From: a virus
Taxonomy: Duplodnaviria; Heunggongvirae; Uroviricota; Caudoviricetes
IMG/VR virus record: IMGVR_UViG_2609459863_000010
Location: 1 to 8,554 of that record
Length of the DNA stretch: 8,554 nt
Direction: 5' to 3' (one strand)
In this document: positions 99 to 8,471 of the stretch, one piece after another
Position numbering within the stretch: the stretch's first letter is position 1
Layout: each line of letters opens with the position of its first letter
Position numbers and translations under genes: made by a program
Notes under the pieces: model-generated
What the model saw: the letters and a program-made list of their open reading frames with translations, nothing else
Database searches by the model: none
What the model was told of the DNA's origin: nothing

Positions 99-1094
99 GT
101 GACCGTGAGAGCACTACTGACCCCTGAAATTGCCCCGCGTATGGGGATCGTATTGTTCAGACCAGGTTCAGAGCTGATGCCCCTGTTTATGCAGGGGCGT
201 GTCCTGCTGGAGCCTGAGCCGGAGCGTTATTCATCTTTCGCCAGTGGTGCCGTTCCGGCGGCATCACAACCGCTGGCGGATGATCCTGCCGTTCGGGCCG
301 TGTTCCGCAATGAGGCAGTGATCCGTCGTGCTGGTGGCGTGGAATGTCTTGAAAGCTGGTTACTTCGTGAAAAAGGCTGCCAGTGGCCTCATTCCGACTG
401 GCACAGCGAGAACATGACCACAATGCGACACGCTCCGGGTGCAATCCGTCTGTGCTGGCACTGCGATAATCAGCTGCGCGATCAGTTCACGGAACGGCTG
501 GAATCAATGGCAACGGATAACTGTGCCCGCTGGGTGTTGTCTGTTGTGCGTCGGGATCTCGGTTTTGATGACAGTCACGTTGTGACAATGCCGGAACTGT
601 GCTGGTGGCTGATTCGTAATGATCTGGCGGATGCCTTACCGGAAAGTGCAGCCCGTAAGGCCCTGAGATTACCGAAGCCTGTTGTGCCGTCTGTCACCCG
701 GGAAAGTGACCTTGTGCCTTCGGTTACTGCCACCAGCATCATCCAGGATAAGGCGAAAAAGGTGCTGGCGCTGAAAGTGGATCCGGAGTCGCCGGAGTCT
801 TTTATGTTACGCCCAAAACGTCGTCGCTGGGTTAATGAAAAGTACACGCGCTGGGTTAAGACGCATCCGTGTGCATGTTGTGGTAAGCCAGCCGACGATC
901 CTCATCACCTGATTGGTCATGGTCAGGGTGGAATGGGTACAAAAGCGCATGACCTTTTTGTGTTGCCTTTGTGCAGAAAACACCATGACGAACTGCATGC
1001 GGATACCGTGGCATTTGAAGAGAAGTATGGTTCCCAACTGGAGCTGATATTTCGTTTTATCGATCGTGCGCTGGCAATTGGCGTGCTGGCCTGA
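99..1094 (+). CDS. DUF968-family phage protein (YdfU-like) with a C-terminal Cys/His cluster, possibly an HNH-like zinc-binding nuclease fold
   Basis: 331-codon ORF; GTG at 99 or, more plausibly, GTG at 105 with GAGG at 96-99. C-terminal motif HPCACCGKP...DPHHLIGHG...PLCRKHHDELH matches my recollection of DUF968 proteins found just upstream of Q in lambdoid prophages. The stop at 1092-1094 lies just before the RBS of the next gene. Confidence 0.8.
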   Translation: MTVRALLTPEIAPRMGIVLFRPGSELMPLFMQGRVLLEPEPERYSSFASGAVPAASQPLADDPAVRAVFRNEAVIRRAGGVECLESWLLREKGCQWPHSDWHSENMTTMRHAPGAIRLCWHCDNQLRDQFTERLESMATDNCARWVLSVVRRDLGFDDSHVVTMPELCWWLIRNDLADALPESAARKALRLPKPVVPSVTRESDLVPSVTATSIIQDKAKKVLALKVDPESPESFMLRPKRRRWVNEKYTRWVKTHPCACCGKPADDPHHLIGHGQGGMGTKAHDLFVLPLCRKHHDELHADTVAFEEKYGSQLELIFRFIDRALAIGVLA

Positions 1095-1111
1095 TTTTGT
1101 GGAGAAAGTTG

Positions 1112-1474
1112 ATGCGTGATATTCAAATGGTTCTGGATCGTTGGGGAGCATGGGCGGCGAGTGATAGTTCAGGAGTAGACTATTCTCCTATAGCTGCTGG
1201 GTTTAAAGGGCTTCTTCCCTATACAAGCAAAACACGTCAGGCTTGTTCAGATAGTGATGCATTAATTATTGAAGGTTGTCTTGCTCTTCTTAAAAAGCGA
1301 AAACCGTACGAGCATTCTTTGATTGTGGCCCATTACCTGTATGGCATCTCGAAAAGAAAGCTTGCAAGAGCTCGCAAAAAAGATGAGAAATTGATACGTA
1401 TAGAGATACAGATGGCTGAAGGGTTTATTGATGGATGCCTTTCAATGCTGGATGTTAAACTTGAAATGGAGTAG
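1112..1474 (+). CDS. Q: Late-gene antitermination protein Q (QuuD / Phage_antitermQ type)
   Basis: N-terminus MRDIQMVLDRWGAWAA... closely matches the recalled QuuD-type Q N-terminus (MRDIQMVLERWGAWAA...). ATG at 1112 is preceded by GGAGAAAG at 1101-1108. The ORF track starts at TTG 1097, which I consider less likely. Stop TAG 1472-1474. Confidence 0.88.
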   Translation: MRDIQMVLDRWGAWAASDSSGVDYSPIAAGFKGLLPYTSKTRQACSDSDALIIEGCLALLKKRKPYEHSLIVAHYLYGISKRKLARARKKDEKLIRIEIQMAEGFIDGCLSMLDVKLEME

Positions 1475-1499
1475 AAAAAAGGGCATTTCTGCCCTTTTT
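1475..1499. terminator. Bidirectional intrinsic terminator shared by Q (+) and the convergent membrane-protein gene (-)
   Basis: AAAAAA, then GGGCA-TTTC-TGCCC hairpin, then TTTTT. The A-run/hairpin/T-run reads as a terminator on both strands. The stop of the minus-strand gene (1498-1500) overlaps the T-run. Confidence 0.7.
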
Positions 1500-1941
1500 A
1501 AATGTGGGGGAGTATCCAGTTTACTTTTCTCCATGTAAAGGCAAAAGTTATTACTGAAATGATAAGAAGAGATAAAGATTCGATAATTAAAATAAATTCT
1601 ATTTTTTCTCCATGTAACAATGTCTTTTCATTGGCAAACATTGCTATCAAAGCAATAACGCATGCCGTAATTAAAGATGCACCTGCGGTTAATAGATTTA
1701 CAATAATAACTTGAAGTATGTTGTTGTTTTTTAATGCTTTTATTATTCCATTTGAGTTTTCGCTAGCAGCACTAAAAATTGATATTGTGGCTAAAATAAA
1801 ACCAAATAAAATACCGGATACAGTTGAAATAACCCCGGAGGCTGTAAGTATGTCAGCATGCCCCATCTGAGGGATATACCTCAGTAGGAACAAGGTGCAA
1901 AAAACACTTACAATCAGGTTTCTTAAGTATTTCAATAACAT
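1498..1941 (-). CDS. RexB-like small integral membrane protein (about 4 predicted TM helices); putative membrane effector of an abortive-infection pair
   Basis: 147 aa, strongly hydrophobic with about four helical segments. Same size class as lambda RexB (144 aa). The LFLLRYIPQMG segment resembles the recalled lambda RexB LLFRHYIPG. ATG at 1941 lies 3 nt after the upstream gene's stop (1945-1947), indicating translational coupling. AT-rich. Confidence 0.72.
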   Translation of the reverse strand: MLLKYLRNLIVSVFCTLFLLRYIPQMGHADILTASGVISTVSGILFGFILATISIFSAASENSNGIIKALKNNNILQVIIVNLLTAGASLITACVIALIAMFANEKTLLHGEKIEFILIIESLSLLIISVITFAFTWRKVNWILPHI

Positions 1942-1944
1942 ATC

Positions 1945-2886
1945 CTATACCTTCTTTTTGCTGATATCGTATTGCTTAAGGTATTCATTGTTATCAATTT
2001 TAGCAGAAATCATGGCTTGCAGAACATCACTATCAGTGCCATAACCATTAACGGTATATATGTTTTTTTCTGAAATGAGTACCTGATCAAGAAGACTTTG
2101 TTCAACGGTATTTTTGGGCTGTGTTACTGCCGCTTTTTTTACAATTCCCGGCATTTTTTCAAGGAGTTCTTTAATACCATCCTTAACGAGATCTGATAAA
2201 TAACCTTTGACTTTTACTCTCCCTGATGCACGTCCCCTTAGATTTAACTTGAGACGTGTTCCACCCAGCCCTACCATCATATTTACCAGTTCCTTAGAAA
2301 ATGAACTATTTAGCTGGTAATTTGTTGCATCAAAGTTCCTGGGAGCAGCCAGGACAATATCACAACTTCTCAAAGTACTTCCTGTTTCAAGTAGCTCTTT
2401 GACGCTCTCTTTTTTCCAGATGGCTTGGAATGAAAAGTTATTTCCAGGATTACCACTCTGGCTGTAAAGCAGATAAGCTAAATCCGATTCTTTCGGCCCA
2501 AGATGATTTTGAGTTAATATTAAAATATCACTATCGTAATAATATAAAAAATAGGTTCTTTCGACTATGTATTTTTTATCATCTAGTGGTATGTTGTGCT
2601 CATTCCAGTGTTCATCACCAATATAAGGAAGGAGATACTCTTCTCGTGAGCATGACATGTAGCCGAAGAAATATTTAGCTTTTGTATCTTTATTTATAAA
2701 AGCTATTTTTAACTTTTTATTTCTATAGATGGTATCAAAATGATTATTCGTAACGGTTACGCAAGTATTATACAGATTTTCAATTGCTTGCTTAGCAACT
2801 GAATGGCTGCGGATAGTCCCAGAACTGCTGGTGTAAAAACCAATTTTAAGTTTTTTTTGTTTCTTTGATTGCGCAATAGTAGCCAT
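1945..2886 (-). CDS. RexA-like cytoplasmic protein; putative sensor/activator partner of the downstream membrane protein
   Basis: 313 aa, no TM segments. Local resemblance to recalled lambda RexA: KIGFYTSSS vs KNGFYATYRS near the N-terminus, GPKESDLAYLL vs GPTTSDLTDFL mid-protein, CDIVLAAPRNF vs LDIVIKPKFK. AAGG lies 7 nt upstream of ATG 2886 on the minus strand. AT-rich relative to flanks. Confidence 0.75.
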   Translation of the reverse strand: MATIAQSKKQKKLKIGFYTSSSGTIRSHSVAKQAIENLYNTCVTVTNNHFDTIYRNKKLKIAFINKDTKAKYFFGYMSCSREEYLLPYIGDEHWNEHNIPLDDKKYIVERTYFLYYYDSDILILTQNHLGPKESDLAYLLYSQSGNPGNNFSFQAIWKKESVKELLETGSTLRSCDIVLAAPRNFDATNYQLNSSFSKELVNMMVGLGGTRLKLNLRGRASGRVKVKGYLSDLVKDGIKELLEKMPGIVKKAAVTQPKNTVEQSLLDQVLISEKNIYTVNGYGTDSDVLQAMISAKIDNNEYLKQYDISKKKV

Positions 2887-3019
2887 GTTAAACCTTAGTA
2901 TACTAATAATTTCTTATGGATCTTATTTTTTATATGGCTTTAATTTAGCAAAAAAAATTACCGCGGTCCGCAAATTTTATCTTAATCTGTTAAGAGTGGT
3001 TACTTCGCCACACAACTTA

Positions 3020-3043
3020 AACCCGCCACTGAGCGGGTTTTTT
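3020..3043 (+). terminator. Intrinsic terminator on the + strand in the divergent intergenic region (candidate tR'-like site)
   Basis: AACCCGC-CACTGA-GCGGGTT hairpin followed by TTTTTT. The T-run is on the + strand only, so it terminates a rightward transcript that would start in 2890-3010. Confidence 0.55.
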
Positions 3044-3141
3044 GTACCTGTAAACTTGGTGCAGTACAGTAAACACGCTGGTGGTCGTGAATACTGACTT
3101 TTTATCTTGCTGGCTTTTTAGACAAGAGTTATTGGTATGTC

Positions 3142-3363
3142 ATGTTAACCAGAAGGGAAAAAGACATGCTAAAACAGCAAGATATGACCGAAACCGCCAG
3201 AGTGGTGTTTAATGAATTGAGCGTCACCGAACCGGCGACTGTCGGGGAAATTGCGCAGAATACTTACCTTTCACGTGAACGCTGCCAGTTAATACTGACT
3301 CAGCTTGTTATGGCGGGTCTGGCAGATTATCAGTTCGGTTGTTACAGACGCCTTCAGCCCTGA
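3142..3363 (+). CDS. Small winged-helix/HTH DNA-binding protein (FaeA/PapI-like fold suspected)
   Basis: 73-codon ORF. The more likely start is ATG 3166, preceded by AGAAGGGAAA (65 aa). The pattern ...TVGEIAQNTYLSRERCQLILTQLVMAGLADY... is typical of a recognition helix plus wing. Its stop overlaps a terminator hairpin. Confidence 0.55.
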   Translation: MLTRREKDMLKQQDMTETARVVFNELSVTEPATVGEIAQNTYLSRERCQLILTQLVMAGLADYQFGCYRRLQP

Positions 3364-3377
3364 AGGCTTTTTTATTT
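3350..3377 (+). terminator. Intrinsic terminator overlapping the stop codon of the small HTH gene
   Basis: GCCTTCA-GCCC-TGAAGGC, a perfect 7-bp stem, followed by TTTTTTATTT. Confidence 0.7.
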
Positions 3378-3513
3378 GTGGTAATGGGCGGCTGGTGGGT
3401 GTTAGCGGCACCTGCCAGCCATCTGCTCATGCGTTGGGGTCACAAGCAAACCTCAGGCCCATCTGCTTTGCGCAAAAGCAGAATGAGCCTATCAGAGACA
3501 GGCTTAATGATCC

Positions 3514-4572
3514 ATGCTTAATACTGTAAAAATATCCAGTTGTGAGTTAATCAACGCCGACTGCCTGGAATTTATCCGGTCGTTACCCGAAAATTCTGTT
3601 GACCTGATAGTCACGGACCCGCCGTACTTTAAAGTGAAGCCCGAGGGCTGGGATAACCAGTGGAAGGGCGACGATGATTACCTGAAGTGGCTGGACCAGT
3701 GTCTGGCGCAGTTCTGGCGGGTGCTGAAACCTGCCGGAAGTCTTTACCTGTTCTGTGGTCATCGCCTGGCATCTGATATCGAAATCATGATGCGTGAACG
3801 CTTCAGTGTGCTGAACCATATTATCTGGGCGAAGCCGTCCGGACGCTGGAACGGATGCAACAAGGAAAGCCTGCGGGCGTATTTCCCCGCCACAGAGCGC
3901 ATTCTGTTCGCGGAACATTATCAGGGGCCGTATCGTCCGAAAGATGCCGGGTATGAGGCGAAGGGCAGGGCACTGAAACAGCATGTGATGGCCCCGCTGA
4001 TTGCTTACTTTCGTGATGCGCGCGCTGCCCTGGGGATAACGGCAAAACAGATTGCAGATGCCACAGGAAAGAAAAACATGGTGCCGCACTGGTTCAGTGC
4101 CAGTCAGTGGCAGCTACCGAACGAAAGCGATTATCTGAAATTACAGTCGCTGTTTGCCCGGGTGGCAGAAGAGAAACATCAGCGCGGGGAACTGGAAAAG
4201 CCACACCACCAGCTGGTCAGCACATACAGTGAGCTGAACCGGCAGTATATGGAACTGCTGAGTGAATATAAAAATTTGCGGCGGTATTTCGGTGTGACGG
4301 TGCAGGTGCCGTACACCGATGTGTGGACGTATAAACCGGTGCAGTACTATCCAGGGAAACATCCGTGCGAAAAACCGGCAGAAATGCTGCAGCAGATAAT
4401 CAGCGCAAGTAGTCGTCCTGGTGATCTGGTTGCGGATTTCTTCATGGGGTCGGGTTCGACAGTCAAAGCCGCGATGGCGCTGGGGCGTCGTGCTACAGGC
4501 GTTGAGCTGGAGACTGAACGTTTTGAGCAGACGGTCAGGGAAGTTCAGGATTTAGCCAGTCAGAACGGATGA
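3514..4572 (+). CDS. Beta-class DNA methyltransferase (N6-adenine or N4-cytosine; N6_N4_Mtase family), apparently orphan
   Basis: 352 aa. Motif IV DPPY (IVTDPPYF) is near the N-terminus and motif I FxGxG (DFFMGSGST) near the C-terminus, the circularly permuted order that defines beta-class amino-methyltransferases. About 200 aa between them would form the target-recognition region. No restriction endonuclease gene is adjacent. Confidence 0.88.
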   Translation: MLNTVKISSCELINADCLEFIRSLPENSVDLIVTDPPYFKVKPEGWDNQWKGDDDYLKWLDQCLAQFWRVLKPAGSLYLFCGHRLASDIEIMMRERFSVLNHIIWAKPSGRWNGCNKESLRAYFPATERILFAEHYQGPYRPKDAGYEAKGRALKQHVMAPLIAYFRDARAALGITAKQIADATGKKNMVPHWFSASQWQLPNESDYLKLQSLFARVAEEKHQRGELEKPHHQLVSTYSELNRQYMELLSEYKNLRRYFGVTVQVPYTDVWTYKPVQYYPGKHPCEKPAEMLQQIISASSRPGDLVADFFMGSGSTVKAAMALGRRATGVELETERFEQTVREVQDLASQNG

Positions 4573-4612
4573 TATTGCAGGATTAGTTACGTACCGTTAT
4601 TATCCTGCGCCC

Positions 4613-4688
4613 GGCCCTTTAGCTCAGTGGTGAGAGCGAGCGACTCATAATCGCCAGGTCGCTGGTTCAAATCCAGCAAGGGCCACCA
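4613..4688 (+). tRNA. tRNA-Ile2 (anticodon CAU, lysidine-type, reads AUA); would be scored as tRNA-Met by anticodon alone
   Basis: 76 nt. Acceptor GGCCCTT/AAGGGCC, D-arm GCTC...GAGC, anticodon loop CTCATAA with CAT at 4646-4648, T-arm GCTGG-TTCAAAT-CCAGC, discriminator A, encoded CCA. Resembles E. coli ileX/ileY and the ileZ of Stx phages. Confidence 0.9.
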
Positions 4689-4695
4689 TCACATA

Positions 4696-4772
4696 CCGCC
4701 ATTAGCTCATCAGGAAAGAGCGCCAGCCTTCGAAGCTGGTTGCGCGGGGTTCGAGTCCTCGATGGCGGTCCA
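4696..4772 (+). tRNA. tRNA-Arg (anticodon UCG)
   Basis: 77 nt. Acceptor CCGCCAT/ATGGCGG, anticodon stem CCAGC/GCTGG with loop CTTCGAA (TCG at positions 34-36), T-loop TTCGAGT, encoded CCA. Confidence 0.88.
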
Positions 4773-4785
4773 TTATCGGTATTCT

Positions 4786-4862
4786 GCGTTGTTAGCTCAG
4801 CCGGACAGAGCAATTGCCTTCTAAGTAATCGGTCACTGGTTCGAATCCAGTACAACGCGCCA
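4786..4862 (+). tRNA. tRNA-Arg (anticodon UCU, reads AGA/AGG)
   Basis: 77 nt. Acceptor GCGTTGT/ACAACGC, anticodon loop CTTCTAA (TCT at 34-36), T-arm GGTTCGAATCC, discriminator G, encoded CCA. Confidence 0.88.
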
Positions 4863-4875
4863 CACTTATTTTCCT

Positions 4876-4902
4876 GGCTCGCTTCGGCGGGCCTTTTAAT
4901 TT
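4876..4902 (+). terminator. Intrinsic terminator closing the tRNA cluster
   Basis: GGCTCGC-TTCG-GCGGGCC, a 7-bp stem with one G-U pair and a UUCG tetraloop, followed by TTTTAATTT. Confidence 0.7.
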
Positions 4903-5168
4903 GCTGAAAAAGAAAACATCAGATGGTTAGTCGGGTATCAGTTATCTGGTGAAATTTTTAAATACCTCACAATTCAGGAAGGTGATTATTGTTTTTCTGG
5001 TGGGGAATTTGTTAAAAATCACTCCGCATGATGAATCCCCCTAAGCGGTGGGGCGACTGGCAAGGCTCCATTACGATGGTCACAATCCGCAGATTTAGTT
5101 TGCCAGGCTGAATCTACCGGGAGGCACCCGGCATCATGCATAATGTGGAAAATTGGAAATGTATTCAG

Positions 5169-5200
5169 GCCTCTACGAATTTTAGTAGAGGCTTTTTTTT
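5169..5200 (+). terminator. Intrinsic terminator of module A
   Basis: GCCTCTAC-GAATTTTA-GTAGAGGC, a perfect 8-bp stem, followed by TTTTTTTT. Confidence 0.75.
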
Positions 5201-5204
5201 GAGT

Positions 5205-5231
5205 AAAAAAAGCCCGTCTATGGCAGCGGGC
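5205..5231 (-). terminator. Minus-strand intrinsic terminator, back-to-back with the module A terminator
   Basis: On the minus strand: GCCCG-CTGCCATAGA-CGGGC followed by TTTTTTT (+ strand AAAAAAAGCCCG...CGGGC). Confidence 0.55.
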
Positions 5232-5582
5232 AAGTATGCATGAGAATACATTTTTTATTATTTGCCTGAAAATAGTACCCTGAGGTTATTGTTGTTTTCA
5301 ACAGGCTGATTTGTGTTCTGATCGGGGATGTGACAAGGAACATACGTTCTTATGTGAAAATGTTAAATTCTTCACATTTCAGTGAGTTGAGTGTTGATTT
5401 CGTTTTATCTTTTTTGTTAAAAAAGTATTGCATGGTGAATCCCCCTGTGCGGTGGGACGACTGGTGACAACAATTCATCATCCGTGATGACCCAGAAGAG
5501 ATCGCGGGTTCAGTGGCACCGGGCTGAACTCACCGGGAGGCACCCGGCACCATGTTCATGGTGATACAGAAATGCGGCTTCA

Positions 5583-5606
5583 GCCCCTCTCCGGAGGGGC
5601 TTTCTT
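5583..5606 (+). terminator. Intrinsic terminator of module B
   Basis: GCCCCTC-TCCG-GAGGGGC, a perfect 7-bp GC-rich stem, followed by TTTCTT. Confidence 0.65.
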
Positions 5607-5612
5607 ATGGAC

Positions 5613-5640
5613 AAAAAAGCCCGCGCTGGGAGACGCGGGC
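5613..5640 (-). terminator. Minus-strand intrinsic terminator, back-to-back with the module B terminator
   Basis: On the minus strand: GCCCGCG-TCTCCCAG-CGCGGGC followed by TTTTTT. Confidence 0.55.
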
Positions 5641-5707
5641 GGCAAGGAATAAACAATAAAACGTGAAGTAATATTTCAGCTGGCGAATAATACCCCATAG
5701 TAATCAC

Positions 5708-5731
5708 TCTGCGCAACTGCGCGGCCTTTTT
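5708..5731 (+). terminator. Intrinsic terminator-like hairpin upstream of the esterase gene
   Basis: CTGCGC-AACT-GCGCGG, a 6-bp stem with one G-U pair, then CC and TTTTT. Confidence 0.45.
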
Positions 5732-5833
5732 CGTATTGCGGGCTGTAGTCTCCCTTCTGCCATTGTCCTGTAACTTCCGGACTTCAGCTCGCTCCTTATC
5801 TGACTCACAACATTATCCCGACCGGGAGGATTC

Positions 5834-7813
5834 ATGACATTTAAACACTACGATGTGGTCAGGGCGGCGTCGCCGTCAGACCTTGCGGAGCGACTGACAC
5901 AAAAACTGAAGGAGGGGTGGCAGCCATTTGGCAGCCCTGTCGCCATCACGCCTTATACCCTGATGCAGGCCATTGCGGCGGAAGGTGATGTCACCACACC
6001 TGTGGTGGTGAAGCCGTCGGATGGAGAAGGCACAGTTATCAGCACCACCAGCGAACCGGAGTATTACTTTGTTGTTGTTCTGGCGGGGCAGTCAAACTCA
6101 ATGTCTTTTGGGGAAGGGCTGCCGCTGCCGGAGACATATGACCGTCCGGACCCGCGTATTAAACAGCTGGCGCGTCGCAGTACGGTGACGCCGGGTGGTG
6201 CCGCCTGTAAATATAACGACATCATTCCGGCAGACCACTGTCTGCATGATGTGCAGGATATGAGTAACCTGAATCATCCTCATGCAGACCTGAGTAAGGG
6301 ACAGTACGGTTGTGTGGGGCATGCTCTGCATGTTGCCAAAAAGCTGCTGCCGTTTATGCCTGCGAATGCGGGTATCCTTCTTGTTCCATGTGGCCGTGGC
6401 GATTCGGGATTTACTGCGGGGGCCGAGGGGGCGTTTAACGAAGCGTCGGGAGCGACCGCAGGCTCGTCCCTGTGGGGGGCGGATAAACCGCTGTATCATG
6501 ACCTGGTCAGCAGAACCCGTGCGGCCCTGAAGAAAAATCCGAAGAACGTGCTGTTATCAGTGATCTGGATGCAGGGAGAAAAAGATGTCAGTTCGGGGAG
6601 ACATGCAGAACACAATGCGCTTTTCCTTGCCATGGTAAATCAGTTCCGTACGGAACTGGCAGATGTGGCAGAGCAGTGTACTGGCGGGACAACGGCCAGC
6701 GTCCCGTGGATTTGCGGTGATACCACGTACTACTGGAAGGAAAGGTATGCAGCGCCGTATGAGGCGGTTTACGGTGGGTATAAAGGCAAAGCTGCGCAGA
6801 ATATTCACTTTGTGCCGTTGATGACGGATGAGCATGGTGTGAATGTGCCGACAAACGAGCCGTCAGAAGATCCGGACATTATCCCGGCGGGATACTATGG
6901 CGCTGCGTCACGCACTGCCAGTAACTGGACGTCAGCCAATCGTAAAACGCACTTCAGTTCATGGGCGCGAAGAGGCCTTGTTTCAGACCGTCTGGCAGGT
7001 GCCATTTTGCAGTACGCCGGGCGGACATTATCGTTCCTTACCGGGCAGAGCGCACCGCTGTCGGGTGGTACAACTCCTGTCAGTCCGGGGACACCGGATG
7101 TTGAGAAACCGCAGGATGGCGGTGTTGCTGGTACTGGTCATGATGAGGCCGTGAGCAGTACCAGGACGGTGGCTGAATATGATGCGAACAGTGGAAATGG
7201 TGTATGGACAGAGCAGCAGTGGGGGGCTGCCGGTGGCAAAGGCACTGTGACTGATGACGGTGGACGGAAAGCGCTGCGACTGGAAAAACAGCCCGGTAAA
7301 CTGACGTCCTGGAAAATGTTCCGTACTGTTGCAGTGGAGGAGGCAAAAAATCTTCTCAGCAAGGGGGGTGAAATTGCCGTACGGTTCAAAATTCCGGATG
7401 GAAGCGAACTGGTGAACGGACAGTTTGTCTTTGGTCTCTACTGGCCGGTGTCGCAGTGGGCGTCAGGCGCGGCAGCAAACAGTATGCTGGCATCATTCTT
7501 CCTTCAGACGGATGCATCAAATCTGAATCTTATGCACCACAAGGGCACGTCGAATGCACAACTGGGCACATTTGGTGCGTTTGACCATAACTGGCATACG
7601 GTTGTTTTCCGCTTTGCGGGAAATAACAGCGAAAGAGTCGTTCCGGTGATTGATGGTGCAGAGCAGACGGCGTTTGACCTTGTGATGTGGACAAATGATG
7701 GCTTTACAGCAGATACGCTGACGCTGACAGATATCACGGGGGCAAAAGCGACGTATCCTGTACTGCTTGATACGGTCACTGTCAAAGTGAAAGAAAGCGA
7801 AGCAGCGGCATAA
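5834..7813 (+). CDS. nanS: Prophage sialate O-acetylesterase (NanS-p type): N-terminal DUF1737, SASA/SGNH-like esterase core, C-terminal extension
   Basis: 659 aa. N-terminus MTFKHYDVVRAASPSDLAE... matches the recalled NanS-p/DUF1737 start. The catalytic-serine block VVLAGQSNSMS is the GQSN motif of SASA esterases. RBS GGGAGGA at 5824-5830. In Stx phages this gene sits immediately downstream of stxB. Confidence 0.9.
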   Translation: MTFKHYDVVRAASPSDLAERLTQKLKEGWQPFGSPVAITPYTLMQAIAAEGDVTTPVVVKPSDGEGTVISTTSEPEYYFVVVLAGQSNSMSFGEGLPLPETYDRPDPRIKQLARRSTVTPGGAACKYNDIIPADHCLHDVQDMSNLNHPHADLSKGQYGCVGHALHVAKKLLPFMPANAGILLVPCGRGDSGFTAGAEGAFNEASGATAGSSLWGADKPLYHDLVSRTRAALKKNPKNVLLSVIWMQGEKDVSSGRHAEHNALFLAMVNQFRTELADVAEQCTGGTTASVPWICGDTTYYWKERYAAPYEAVYGGYKGKAAQNIHFVPLMTDEHGVNVPTNEPSEDPDIIPAGYYGAASRTASNWTSANRKTHFSSWARRGLVSDRLAGAILQYAGRTLSFLTGQSAPLSGGTTPVSPGTPDVEKPQDGGVAGTGHDEAVSSTRTVAEYDANSGNGVWTEQQWGAAGGKGTVTDDGGRKALRLEKQPGKLTSWKMFRTVAVEEAKNLLSKGGEIAVRFKIPDGSELVNGQFVFGLYWPVSQWASGAAANSMLASFFLQTDASNLNLMHHKGTSNAQLGTFGAFDHNWHTVVFRFAGNNSERVVPVIDGAEQTAFDLVMWTNDGFTADTLTLTDITGAKATYPVLLDTVTVKVKESEAAA

Positions 7814-7827
7814 CAGGCGAAAAAAGA

Positions 7828-7870
7828 GCCAGCGCCGGAGGGAAAACATATAAAGGAGCCGGGCGCTGGC
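7828..7870 (+). repeat. Inverted repeat (11/12-bp arms, 20-nt spacer) immediately after the esterase stop
   Basis: GCCAGCGCCGG ... CCGGGCGCTGGC with spacer AGGGAAAACATATAAAGGAG. No T-run follows, so it is not a canonical intrinsic terminator. Confidence 0.4.
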
Positions 7871-7960
7871 CAAACAAGGCAGCAAATATTGCTTAACTCT
7901 TATGTCCGTAGTTTTGTACCTTTTTTTACTGGATGTTTCAAATAATAACGGTAAGAAATT

Positions 7961-8155
7961 ATGACGTTAGTTCATCAGTTCATGCTGTACTTCTGTACGG
8001 CGGTATGCGTGCTGTATCTTCTTTCGGGTGGGTACAGGGCAGTGCGCGATTTCTGGCGCAGGCAGATTGATAAAAGGGCCGCAGAGAAAATCAGCGCCAG
8101 TCAGTCAGCCGGAGCAAAAACAGAAGCCCCACTCATTCCGGAACAACCTTCTTAA
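7961..8155 (+). CDS. Small hypothetical membrane protein (single predicted TM segment)
   Basis: 64 aa with N-terminal hydrophobic stretch LVHQFMLYFCTAVCVLYLLSGGY and a basic/charged tail. Weak RBS. Confidence 0.45.
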   Translation: MTLVHQFMLYFCTAVCVLYLLSGGYRAVRDFWRRQIDKRAAEKISASQSAGAKTEAPLIPEQPS

Positions 8156-8180
8156 TAACCCCTTTCAACGAGAAAATCCT

Positions 8181-8471
8181 ATGTCAGAAATAAAATCGCT
8201 GGTCACTGCTGAGGCAGTGAAGGAAGTCCTGCGCTCTGAAGAAGTCCGGAGCGCACTGAAACAGCAACTTCGGCAGAACCTTGAGGCGCGTCTTGATGCA
8301 GAAGTGGATGCCATTCTGGATGAATTGCTTGGTGCACAGCCGGAACCATCCCCGGAACTGCTTCCGGAACCACAGGCGGAAGATGTCACCACGGAAAATG
8401 GTGATATTCAGCCGGAGCCACCGGTGACGGATATGACAGACACACAACCCGAACCGGGCACAATGCTGTAA
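8181..8471 (+). CDS. Hypothetical acidic protein with a Pro/Glu-rich (PEP-repeat) C-terminal tail
   Basis: The ORF track gives 8028-8471, but the 5' part overlaps the preceding ORF. ATG 8181 (MSEIKSLVTAE...) is in frame and follows that ORF's stop. A strong terminator lies immediately downstream. Confidence 0.55.
   Translation: MSEIKSLVTAEAVKEVLRSEEVRSALKQQLRQNLEARLDAEVDAILDELLGAQPEPSPELLPEPQAEDVTTENGDIQPEPPVTDMTDTQPEPGTML

Follow-up and report, generated by a model that had tools for sequence, protein, structure and literature searches.

Two probable convergent small RNA gene pairs between the tRNA cluster and nanS-p of a lambdoid prophage

Features of the interval between the tRNA cluster and nanS-p

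The DNA analysed in this study (referred to as the window) comprises 8,554 nt of the viral record IMGVR_UViG_2609459863_000010 and represents the late-regulatory region of a lambdoid prophage. We focused on the interval at positions 4863-5833 (971 nt, 11% of the window), located between a tRNA cluster and a gene encoding an esterase of the nanS-p type. The original prediction had placed this interval in the "stx slot" of Shiga toxin (Stx) phages, and this placement is correct, since the Sakai prophage Sp5 and the Stx2a phage KH16-043 both carry stx2A and stx2B between the same tRNAs and the esterase gene. Our analysis makes it highly probable that the interval is a stack of two convergent small RNA (sRNA) gene pairs, or dyads, of a kind known from lambdoid prophages. 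Its features are listed below, with those of the minus strand given in the direction of transcription where this is relevant.

4613-4862, plus strand: tRNA cluster forming the left border of the interval (ARAGORN and Rfam tRNA matches; ileZ-type CAT, argN-type TCG, argO-type TCT)
4876-4902, plus strand: terminator of the tRNA cluster (hairpin 4876-4893 followed by T, -13.6 kcal/mol; GGCTCGCTTCGGCGGGCC + TTTTAATTT)
4903-4965: spacer separating the first sRNA module from the tRNA terminator (junction comparison with Sp5, KH16-043, Sp4 and Sp9; maps of open reading frames and Rfam matches)
5010-5018, plus strand: predicted extended -10 element of STnc100-A (TGtTAAAAA), ending 7 nt before G5026
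~5026-5202, plus strand: STnc100-A sRNA (~177 nt; Rfam RF02076, minimum free energy fold, compensatory pairs)
5167-5194, plus strand: STnc100-A terminator hairpin, followed by T8 (-16.5 kcal/mol)
5232-5213, minus strand: candidate A terminator hairpin, followed by T7 (bulged stem; the 62-nt RNA folds at -13.2)
5265 to 5206, minus strand: candidate A, an AsxR/AgvB-like short sRNA (predicted 60 nt), convergent with STnc100-A
5301-5272, minus strand: predicted sigma-70 promoter of candidate A (TTGAAA, 18 nt, TACTAT; promoter scan), with a start at ~G5265
5415-5423, plus strand: predicted extended -10 element of STnc100-B (TGtTAAAAA), ending 7 nt before G5430
~5430-5606, plus strand: STnc100-B sRNA (~177 nt; Rfam RF02076, alignment, pair counts)
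5582-5601, plus strand: STnc100-B terminator hairpin, followed by UUUCUUAU (-17.3 kcal/mol)
~5805 to 5612, minus strand: sRNA B, of the EcOnc08/EcOnc21 type (~182-194 nt, 5′ end inferred), convergent with STnc100-B
5640-5619, minus strand: sRNA B terminator hairpin, followed by T6 (-16.9 kcal/mol)
5709-5731, plus strand: weak hairpin inside the sRNA B gene (stem 5709-5724 followed by T5, CTGCGCAACTGCGCGG CCTTTTT; -9.1 kcal/mol)
5840-5812, minus strand: predicted sRNA B promoter (ATGTCA, 17 nt, GATAAT; promoter scan), which would give an RNA of ~194 nt

As had been predicted, the interval lacks any open reading frame (ORF) of coding character: the longest ORF overlapping it comprises 68 amino acids (aa), and a Pfam search with its nine small ORFs revealed no match at E<=0.01 (best E=0.09). 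A reading of the interval as a group of small-protein genes was rejected on the basis of these searches and of the non-conserved length of the ORF at the 5′ end of STnc100. A DUF3927 remnant was also looked for in the interval, and none was found; DUF3927 annotation underlies some matches in other genomes.

The region between positions 4500 and 6000 contains six terminator-like sites (five of them distinct), compared with 1.6 ± 1.3 in shuffled sequences, and five of the six sites listed first in a scan of the whole window fall inside the interval. All six hairpins named in the original prediction (four on the plus strand and two on the minus strand) were found and do fold, although the one at 5232-5213 was missed by the pattern scan because its stem is bulged. 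The four plus-strand terminators differ, however, in what they represent: that at 4876-4902 belongs to the tRNA cluster, while that at 5708-5731 is the weakest and lies within the sRNA B gene. The hairpin following argO is also present in Sp5 (upstream of stx2A), Sp4, Sp9 and KH16-043. The 5709 hairpin, which is matched in folding by 12 of 200 shuffled sequences (z = -1.7), is conserved in Sp5, Sp9, KH16-043 and S19-651. It corresponds in position to the terminator of PasD2, and the same hairpin is located beside the promoters of AsxR, AgvB and EcOnc03; it thus marks a module boundary that is old and shared. Read on the plus strand, it may act as a weak backup terminator before nanS-p.

The four predicted RNAs and their relatives

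An Rfam scan, suggested with the original prediction, returned two full-length matches to the STnc100 family (RF02076): one of 122.1 bits at 4996-5204 (STnc100-A) and one of 140.3 bits at 5400-5612 (STnc100-B). Both cover positions 1-206 of the 206-position model, and membership required that the whole model be matched with no less than the gathering score of 47 bits; no essential difference separates the two copies from RF02076. The model starts ~30 nt upstream of the likely 5′ end of the RNA and thus appears to include ~30 nt of promoter sequence.

In the minimum free energy fold of STnc100-A, a closing stem (GCAUGAUG/CAUCAUGC) surrounds a multi-hairpin body, which is followed by (i) an unpaired, A/U-rich linker of ~27 nt (5139-5166), the presumed seed, and (ii) the terminator with its U8 tail. 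STnc100-B contains a closing stem (GCAUGGUG/CACCAUG), an unpaired linker (5556-5581) and the terminator ending in UUUCUUAU. Both copies were aligned with those of Sp5 (EcOnc27), Sp4 (EcOnc05) and KH16-043, and with PasD2 of enteropathogenic Escherichia coli (EPEC). The structured 5′ body (GCAUGGUGAAUCCCCC...ACCGGGAGGCACCCGGCACCAUG) is conserved across this alignment, while the unpaired linker preceding the terminator differs from copy to copy. A ACCGGGAGGCACCCGG core is conserved as well. For this small sample of six sequences RNAalifold predicted 36 consensus pairs, six of which are changed on both sides with pairing kept, e.g. a pair of the closing stem that is G-C in copy B and A-U in copy A.

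A TTTGTTAAAA element (TGtTAAAAA), placed 7 nt upstream of GCAUG, was recognized in eight of the nine listed STnc100-type copies; the remaining one, PasD2, carries TTTATTAAAA (TAtTAAAAA). The 5′ ends of the two RNAs are predicted at ~5026 and ~5430, because reads of PasD2 obtained in EPEC by ligating and sequencing interacting RNAs (RIL-seq) begin with the corresponding G (Pearl Mizrahi et al. 2021, PMC8550237) and the spacing to the -10 element is conserved.

STnc100 was first reported in Salmonella. Strain EDL933 harbors ~11 copies, which are transcribed (RNA-seq), and one of them is northern-positive. When mapped, the northern probe sequences of Tree et al. fall on the STnc100 copies of Sp4 (EcOnc05), Sp10 (EcOnc06) and Sp5 (EcOnc27), and these RNAs have been detected both by northern blotting and by cross-linking to Hfq (Hfq-CRAC; cross-linking and analysis of cDNA) (Tree et al. 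2014, PMC4104026). The STnc100 family is therefore the plus-strand partner of the published dyads. By analogy with these homologues, STnc100-A and STnc100-B would each form a discrete, Hfq-associated transcript.

The two copies also resemble PasD1 and PasD2 of EPEC E2348/69 in their position upstream of nanS-p, the 5′ GCAUGGUGAAUCC start, the promoter element, a related fold and a terminator like the 5709 hairpin. In contrast to the window copies, PasD lacks a convergent partner, its body is shortened and its seed reads UGUGAG; this seed is absent from the linkers of copies A and B, and the similarity to PasD2 detected by BLAST is confined to 36 nt at the 5′ end. As judged from their sequences, the window copies and PasD are related at the level of an STnc100/PasD superfamily only. 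A 2026 preprint (Zhu, Shabalina and Storz) connects PasD with STnc100 and with the esterase neighbourhood.

The minus-strand partner of STnc100-A, candidate A, contains, in 5′ to 3′ order, an (ARN)4 tract (AAUAAUAAAAAA, 5262-5251), a CUCAUGC..UUGCCCG core, and the terminator with a U7 tail. The tract reads AAU AAU AAA AAA at RNA positions 4-15; ARN (A-R-N) is the motif bound by the distal face of Hfq, and it occurs in AgvB and AsxR (Tree et al. 2014, PMC4104026). The sequence preceding the terminator, GUAUUCUCAUGCAUACUUGCCCG, matches the core shared by AsxR, AgvB and EcOnc03 (GUAUCUCAUGC..UUGCCCG). These anti-sRNAs have been described as RNAs of 51-60 nt in which ~42 nt on the 3′ side are conserved and 14-18 nt on the 5′ side vary (Tree et al. 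2014, PMC4104026). For candidate A a length of 60 nt is predicted from the putative promoter; the core is present, and the terminator stem is different. It faces an STnc100-type sRNA, and the surrounding genes (Q, methylase, tRNAs and then nanS-p) place it at the moron site 3′ of PR′. The 3′ end of candidate A (5206) and the end of the U-tract of STnc100-A (5202) are separated only by positions 5203-5205.

The curated Rfam models align with candidate A end to end (5205/5207-5264, minus strand), but the scores are below the gathering thresholds: 20.7 bits for AsxR (RF02703; threshold 63) and 15.9 bits for AgvB (RF02702; threshold 56). A family model (R1) was built from AsxR, AgvB, EcOnc03 and a fourth type found in viral contigs, with candidate A left out. 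R1 scores candidate A at 23.5 bits (E ~7e-4, a rough value), and this is its sole significant match on both strands of the window. Since the Rfam scores are far below their thresholds while the R1 match is significant, we classify candidate A, on sequence criteria, as a diverged relative of AsxR and AgvB that is not a member by the curated Rfam test. By analogy, it most likely acts as they do, as a short class-II-like RNA or a sponge. It has a predicted promoter of its own, and its 5′ (ARN)4 tract occurs in none of the described family members.

In strain 550, one STnc100 copy is convergent with a variant of candidate A (82% identity) which retains the promoter (TTGAAA/TAATAT), the 5′ tract and the core. 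A fourth type of 5′ variable region of the AsxR/AgvB/EcOnc03 family (CGAUUAUAAAAAUGUAUAU-CUCAUGCUGUUGCCCG...) was observed in four IMG/VR loci (L151, L213, L227 and L229); it is absent from the three named anti-sRNAs, and its AAAAAUGUAU stretch resembles candidate A.

The partner of STnc100-B, sRNA B, is antisense to the 5′ leader of nanS-p. It carries the seed CCUUGCC (5647-5641) directly 5′ of its terminator (5640-5619 with a U6 tail). It is similar to EcOnc08/EcOnc21/EcOnc42 over the whole RNA, and its seed and terminator stem are identical to those of the E2348C_1409.E2348C_1408.IGR sRNA of EPEC and of the RNA of Sakai Sp4. Identity to these two RNAs was estimated by eye at ~95%; in the output of the alignment tool, the mean column identity of the five loci together was only 87%. 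The EPEC RNA, estimated at 182 nt, has EcOnc08/21/42 as homologues (Pearl Mizrahi et al. 2021, PMC8550237), and its RIL-seq chimeras involve the 5′ untranslated regions (5′UTRs) of cfa (767) and dppA (197), tir and others. The target motif, GGCAAGG, is complementary to CCUUGCC (PMC8550237). The Sp4 RNA was detected as the Hfq-CRAC peaks EcOnc08 and EcOnc21, and as a northern signal of ~271 nt in enterohaemorrhagic E. coli (EHEC). By transfer from these homologues, sRNA B would be an Hfq-bound transcript with targets in trans.

The predicted promoter of sRNA B is conserved in four of the five loci, but the site overlaps the ribosome-binding site and start codon of nanS-p, so this conservation does not constitute independent evidence. 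A shorter isoform may arise from an internal TGaAATATT element. The interpretation of sRNA B as a short RNA of the AsxR type was abandoned, since the homology to the EPEC and Sp4 RNAs extends over ~190 nt. In the Rfam scan no score of a minus-strand RNA reached its gathering threshold; a weak match to OmrA-B at 5612-5700 (21.8 bits, E=0.26) is explained by the terminator and was discarded in view of the EcOnc08/EPEC homology.

Dyad architecture, related loci and alternative explanations

Each of the proposed dyads would consist of an STnc100 gene on the strand of the late operon and a gene on the opposite strand, with their terminators abutting tail to tail: dyad A would combine STnc100-A with the 60-nt AsxR/AgvB-like RNA, and dyad B would combine STnc100-B with the ~190-nt EcOnc08/21-like RNA. 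Convergent sRNA pairs located 3′ of the late promoter PR′, at the moron site, have been described in Sakai prophages Sp3, Sp4, Sp5, Sp9, Sp10, Sp11, Sp15 and Sp17 (Tree et al. 2014, PMC4104026), which bears out the expectation of regulatory RNAs at the equivalent position of prophages of pathogenic E. coli. A later review gave these pairs the name dyads and located them between the late promoter and the lysis genes. The proposal that the region contains several short transcription units for Hfq-type RNAs, and not a leader, is likewise supported by the two STnc100 copies and by the similarity of the minus-strand genes to Hfq-bound prophage sRNAs.

The tRNA cluster of the window is annotated in Sp4, Sp5 and Sp9, and the order tRNAs, dyad, nanS-p is seen in Sp4, Sp9 and Sp10; Sp5 has the same order with stx2AB added upstream of the dyad. 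The Sp5 dyad, located downstream of stx2B, is formed by EcOnc27 (sRNA103, an STnc100 copy) and AsxR (EcOnc02) (Tree et al. 2014, PMC4104026). In both Sp5 and the window, the stretch from the tRNA cluster to nanS-p contains a plus-strand gene of the STnc100 family and a short minus-strand RNA whose terminators abut, and the CTGCGCAACTGCGCGG hairpin and the nanS-p leader are common to both. Candidate A resembles AsxR in its CUCAUGC..UUGCCCG core, size, ARN-rich 5′ end and orientation. Unlike the window, Sp5 contains stx2AB upstream and only one dyad. Moreover, candidate A has a TTGAAA/TACTAT promoter instead of TAAAAT beside the hairpin, it differs from AsxR in its 5′ region and bulged terminator stem, and the linkers (seeds) of the window STnc100 copies are not those of the Sp5 copy.

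Positions 5501-5833 exhibit 87-88% identity to the EcOnc05/EcOnc08-EcOnc21 dyad of Sp4 and to a locus of EPEC prophage PP6. Sp4 shows the same stx-less arrangement as the window (tRNAs, dyad, nanS-p), but both Sp4 and PP6 contain one dyad, compared with two in the window, and the linker of the Sp4 STnc100 copy (EcOnc05) is unlike that of STnc100-B. In PP6 of EPEC E2348/69, STnc100 (positions 1578 and 3121-3297 of the locus) is split by ISEc13 (transposase at 1612-2985); its convergent partner, the E2348C_1409.E2348C_1408.IGR sRNA, is intact and expressed.

Dyad B shares 92% identity with the single dyad of KH16-043, and STnc100-B belongs to the subtype found downstream of stx2B in this phage. 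The region between the tRNA terminator and the shared dyad is occupied by stx2AB in KH16-043 and by dyad A in the window, and a comparison of the junctions revealed that the insertion point of stx2AB in Stx2 phages is the spacer equivalent to 4903-4965. The statement that the terminator-rich DNA takes the place of stx is thus correct for dyad A, which alone occupies the stx position, but not for the interval as a whole, since Stx2 phages also have one dyad, which lies downstream of stx2B and ahead of nanS-p.

The two dyads of the window are 72-86% identical in their shared parts and the related loci are mosaic, which argues for assembly of the stack by recombination between prophages and not by recent duplication. 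Stacking was also observed in S19-651, with about three STnc100 copies (one partial) between the tRNAs and nanS-p, and in strain 550 (NZ_CP058223), with four copies in 3 kb. In the latter strain these copies (positions 951-3913 of locus L010) are interspersed with an STnc490 match, a fragment of a group II intron and insertion sequences (ISs) of the IS200, IS630 and IS21 types. We tentatively suggest, as a possibility that falls short of an even chance, that candidate A is a functional anti-sRNA or class-II-like sRNA of new specificity and, jointly, that the STnc100 body and flanks serve as recombination handles for the stacking and swapping of dyad cassettes, with a dyad and stx2AB as interchangeable cargo at the stx position.

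The 205-nt segment at 5196-5400, which contains candidate A, is present in six of 5426 complete E. coli genomes (99.5-100% identity), in unrelated strains that include NCTC9112, S1-CAM-02-A, DETEC-S792 and STEC17-183, and its 82% variant (with the promoter, 5′ tract and core kept) in four more. The segment has no match in the GenBank phage collection. Candidate A was found in three IMG/VR contigs out of 2.9 million; one of these is identical to positions 3835-8355 of the window. A scan with a 20-nt candidate A pattern retrieved mostly unrelated coding sequence in viral and metagenome contigs; it yielded three true viral contigs and no true match in the metagenome contigs. The pattern CTCATGCN{1,6}TTGCCCG is too short for use on genome contigs, where it matches by chance; in a filtered viral scan it retrieved the known types and the fourth type.

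Several observations weigh against the interpretation as two dyads. The promoters and 5′ ends have all been predicted or carried over from homologues, the STnc100 copies have no assigned -35 element, and the -35 hexamers of candidate A (TTGAAA) and sRNA B (ATGTCA) are weak. The folding z-scores of the whole RNAs are unimpressive (-0.4 to -2.0), and the U-tail of STnc100-B (UUUCUUAU) is interrupted. To these may be added the sub-threshold Rfam scores of candidate A and its bulged terminator stem, which is unlike that of the family. 

The position of the interval, which matches the stx slot of Stx phages, might suggest a decayed stx operon or a scar left by loss of the toxin genes. A tblastn search of the interval with Stx2A and Stx2B of Sp5 gave nothing better than E=2.8, and the sole blastn match of the Sp5 stx2AB DNA is the 32-nt terminator of the tRNA trailer (stx1 was not queried in either search); homology to sRNA modules covers the whole interval except for short spacers at ~4903-4965 and ~5305-5370. 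A remnant is thus refuted for stx2, in agreement with the original description of the interval as free of toxin genes, and this explanation retains practically no probability. It is also very improbable that the modules are non-functional recombination debris, i.e. decaying pseudo-sRNA genes of a cryptic prophage. The rarity of the full arrangement (6 of 5426 genomes) and the mosaic, IS-interrupted nature of related loci (L010, L011, and the STnc100 copy of EPEC PP6 split by ISEc13) would be in keeping with decay. However, both STnc100 copies match the model from end to end and keep compensatory pairs and promoter elements, sRNA B retains its seed, terminator and ~95% identity (by eye) to the EPEC and Sp4 RNAs, and candidate A is 99.5-100% identical in six unrelated strains, with promoter, 5′ tract and core kept even in the diverged variant.

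Translation of the 5′ part of STnc100 into a small, near-leaderless peptide (M-V/M-N-P-P...) could be considered, since an AUG is placed 2 nt from the predicted 5′ end and some EDL933 copies show high ribosome coverage (up to 3.2). Most EDL933 copies, however, have low coverage, the ORF differs in length (27 aa in copy A, 11 aa in copy B and Sp5, 8 aa in PasD2) and is not preceded by a Shine-Dalgarno sequence, and the sequence changes follow RNA pairing and not codons, which makes this reading scarcely credible. A mainly cis-acting role, in which the locus is a bidirectional transcriptional insulator with antisense control of the late operon and trans targets are incidental, is compatible with the two-dyad explanation and does not exclude it. 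This role would be consistent with (i) the concentration of five of the six first-listed terminator-like sites of the window just upstream of nanS-p and the lysis genes, (ii) the mutual complementarity of the U- and A-tracts of the abutting terminators and (iii) the extension of sRNA B across the nanS-p leader, with its predicted promoter overlapping the start codon. On the other hand, the homologues have many Hfq-dependent partners in trans (cfa, dppA, tir), trans activity has been proven for AsxR and AgvB (Tree et al. 2014, PMC4104026), and the seed regions are conserved or vary in the manner typical of trans-acting sRNAs; we therefore regard a mainly cis role as unlikely.

The interval is embedded in the following genes of the window.

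99-1094: gene encoding a DUF968 protein
1097-1474: Q antiterminator gene (PF06530)
1498-2886, minus strand: two genes
3514-4572: DNA methylase gene
5834-7813: nanS-p type esterase gene (SASA/DUF1737/DUF6645), followed by DUF1378 and DUF826 genes

The first tRNA of the cluster (4613-4688) is identified as Met (anticodon CAT) by ARAGORN and annotated as tRNA-Ile (ileZ type, lysidine-modified) in RefSeq relatives, which is an ordinary discrepancy in naming. The minus-strand insert between Q and the methylase gene encodes a 147-aa protein (phrog_8552) and a 313-aa DUF6731 protein (phrog_7651). It is flanked by a bidirectional terminator (1476-1500) and is missing from a prophage of strain S1-CAM-02-A that is similar in other respects; its appearance is that of a moron at the site expected for PR′. 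A possible role of these two genes as a defence system was dismissed, since neither PADLOC nor NCBIfam gave a match. Two terminator-like hairpins are located on the plus strand before the methylase gene, at 3021-3046 (aaacccgccactgagcgggtttttt) and 3350-3376 (GCCTTCAGCCCTGAAGGC+T6). One of them may be tR′ of the late promoter, defining a short StxS-like leader RNA.

On the minus strand, a strong terminator (GCCAGCGCC...GGCGCUGGC + UCUUUUUU) preceded by CCUUGUUUG is located immediately behind the stop codon of nanS-p (7816-7900). It resembles the terminator and seed arm of PasA of EPEC (GAGCCAGCACC...GUGCUGGCUGUUUUUUU), which is located in prophage PP2 between the esterase gene and the holin gene. 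This region is probably a PasA/PasC-like sRNA gene.

Proposed mode of action and significance

In a lysogen, each of the four genes would be transcribed from its own promoter, and each transcript would end at its own terminator, by analogy with the homologues. The stem and U-tail, together with the ARN tract in candidate A, would provide surfaces for Hfq binding. The STnc100 RNAs would combine a shared structured 5′ body with differing linkers acting as seeds; since these linkers differ, the RNAs should address different sets of targets. sRNA B would use its CCUUGCC seed; on Hfq in EPEC, this seed becomes ligated to cfa, dppA and tir mRNAs, which contain GGCAAGG. The back-to-back terminators, along with the tRNA terminator and the weak 5709 hairpin, would halt unmodified RNA polymerase before nanS-p and the lysis genes. 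Upon induction, Q-modified polymerase starting from PR′ would read through them, in line with the established biology of lambda Q. The minus-strand RNAs may also have a cis role, since any late read-through transcript would be complementary to them. When pairing between the four predicted RNAs was scored with RNAduplex against shuffled sequences, z values of -1.5 to +0.65 were obtained, which are uninformative.

Publications or Rfam already cover this type of element, its general layout and three of the four genes. The novelty is modest and consists of the rare anti-sRNA-like variant (candidate A) and the explicit stacking of dyads at the stx position; the locus thus provides one rare family variant and a clear case of stacking, and not a new kind of system. 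The RefSeq records examined leave the interval blank, although it probably encodes four regulators. AgvB and AsxR sponge GcvB and FnrS, and the host Hfq network is engaged by homologues of the predicted RNAs; lambdoid prophages that are not toxigenic may therefore still re-tune metabolism and virulence genes of the host. Sequence variation in the STnc100/EcOnc27 region downstream of stx2B is among the features predictive of haemolytic uraemic syndrome (HUS) (PMC12711010), and the range and exchange of dyad types constitute useful background for work on HUS prediction.

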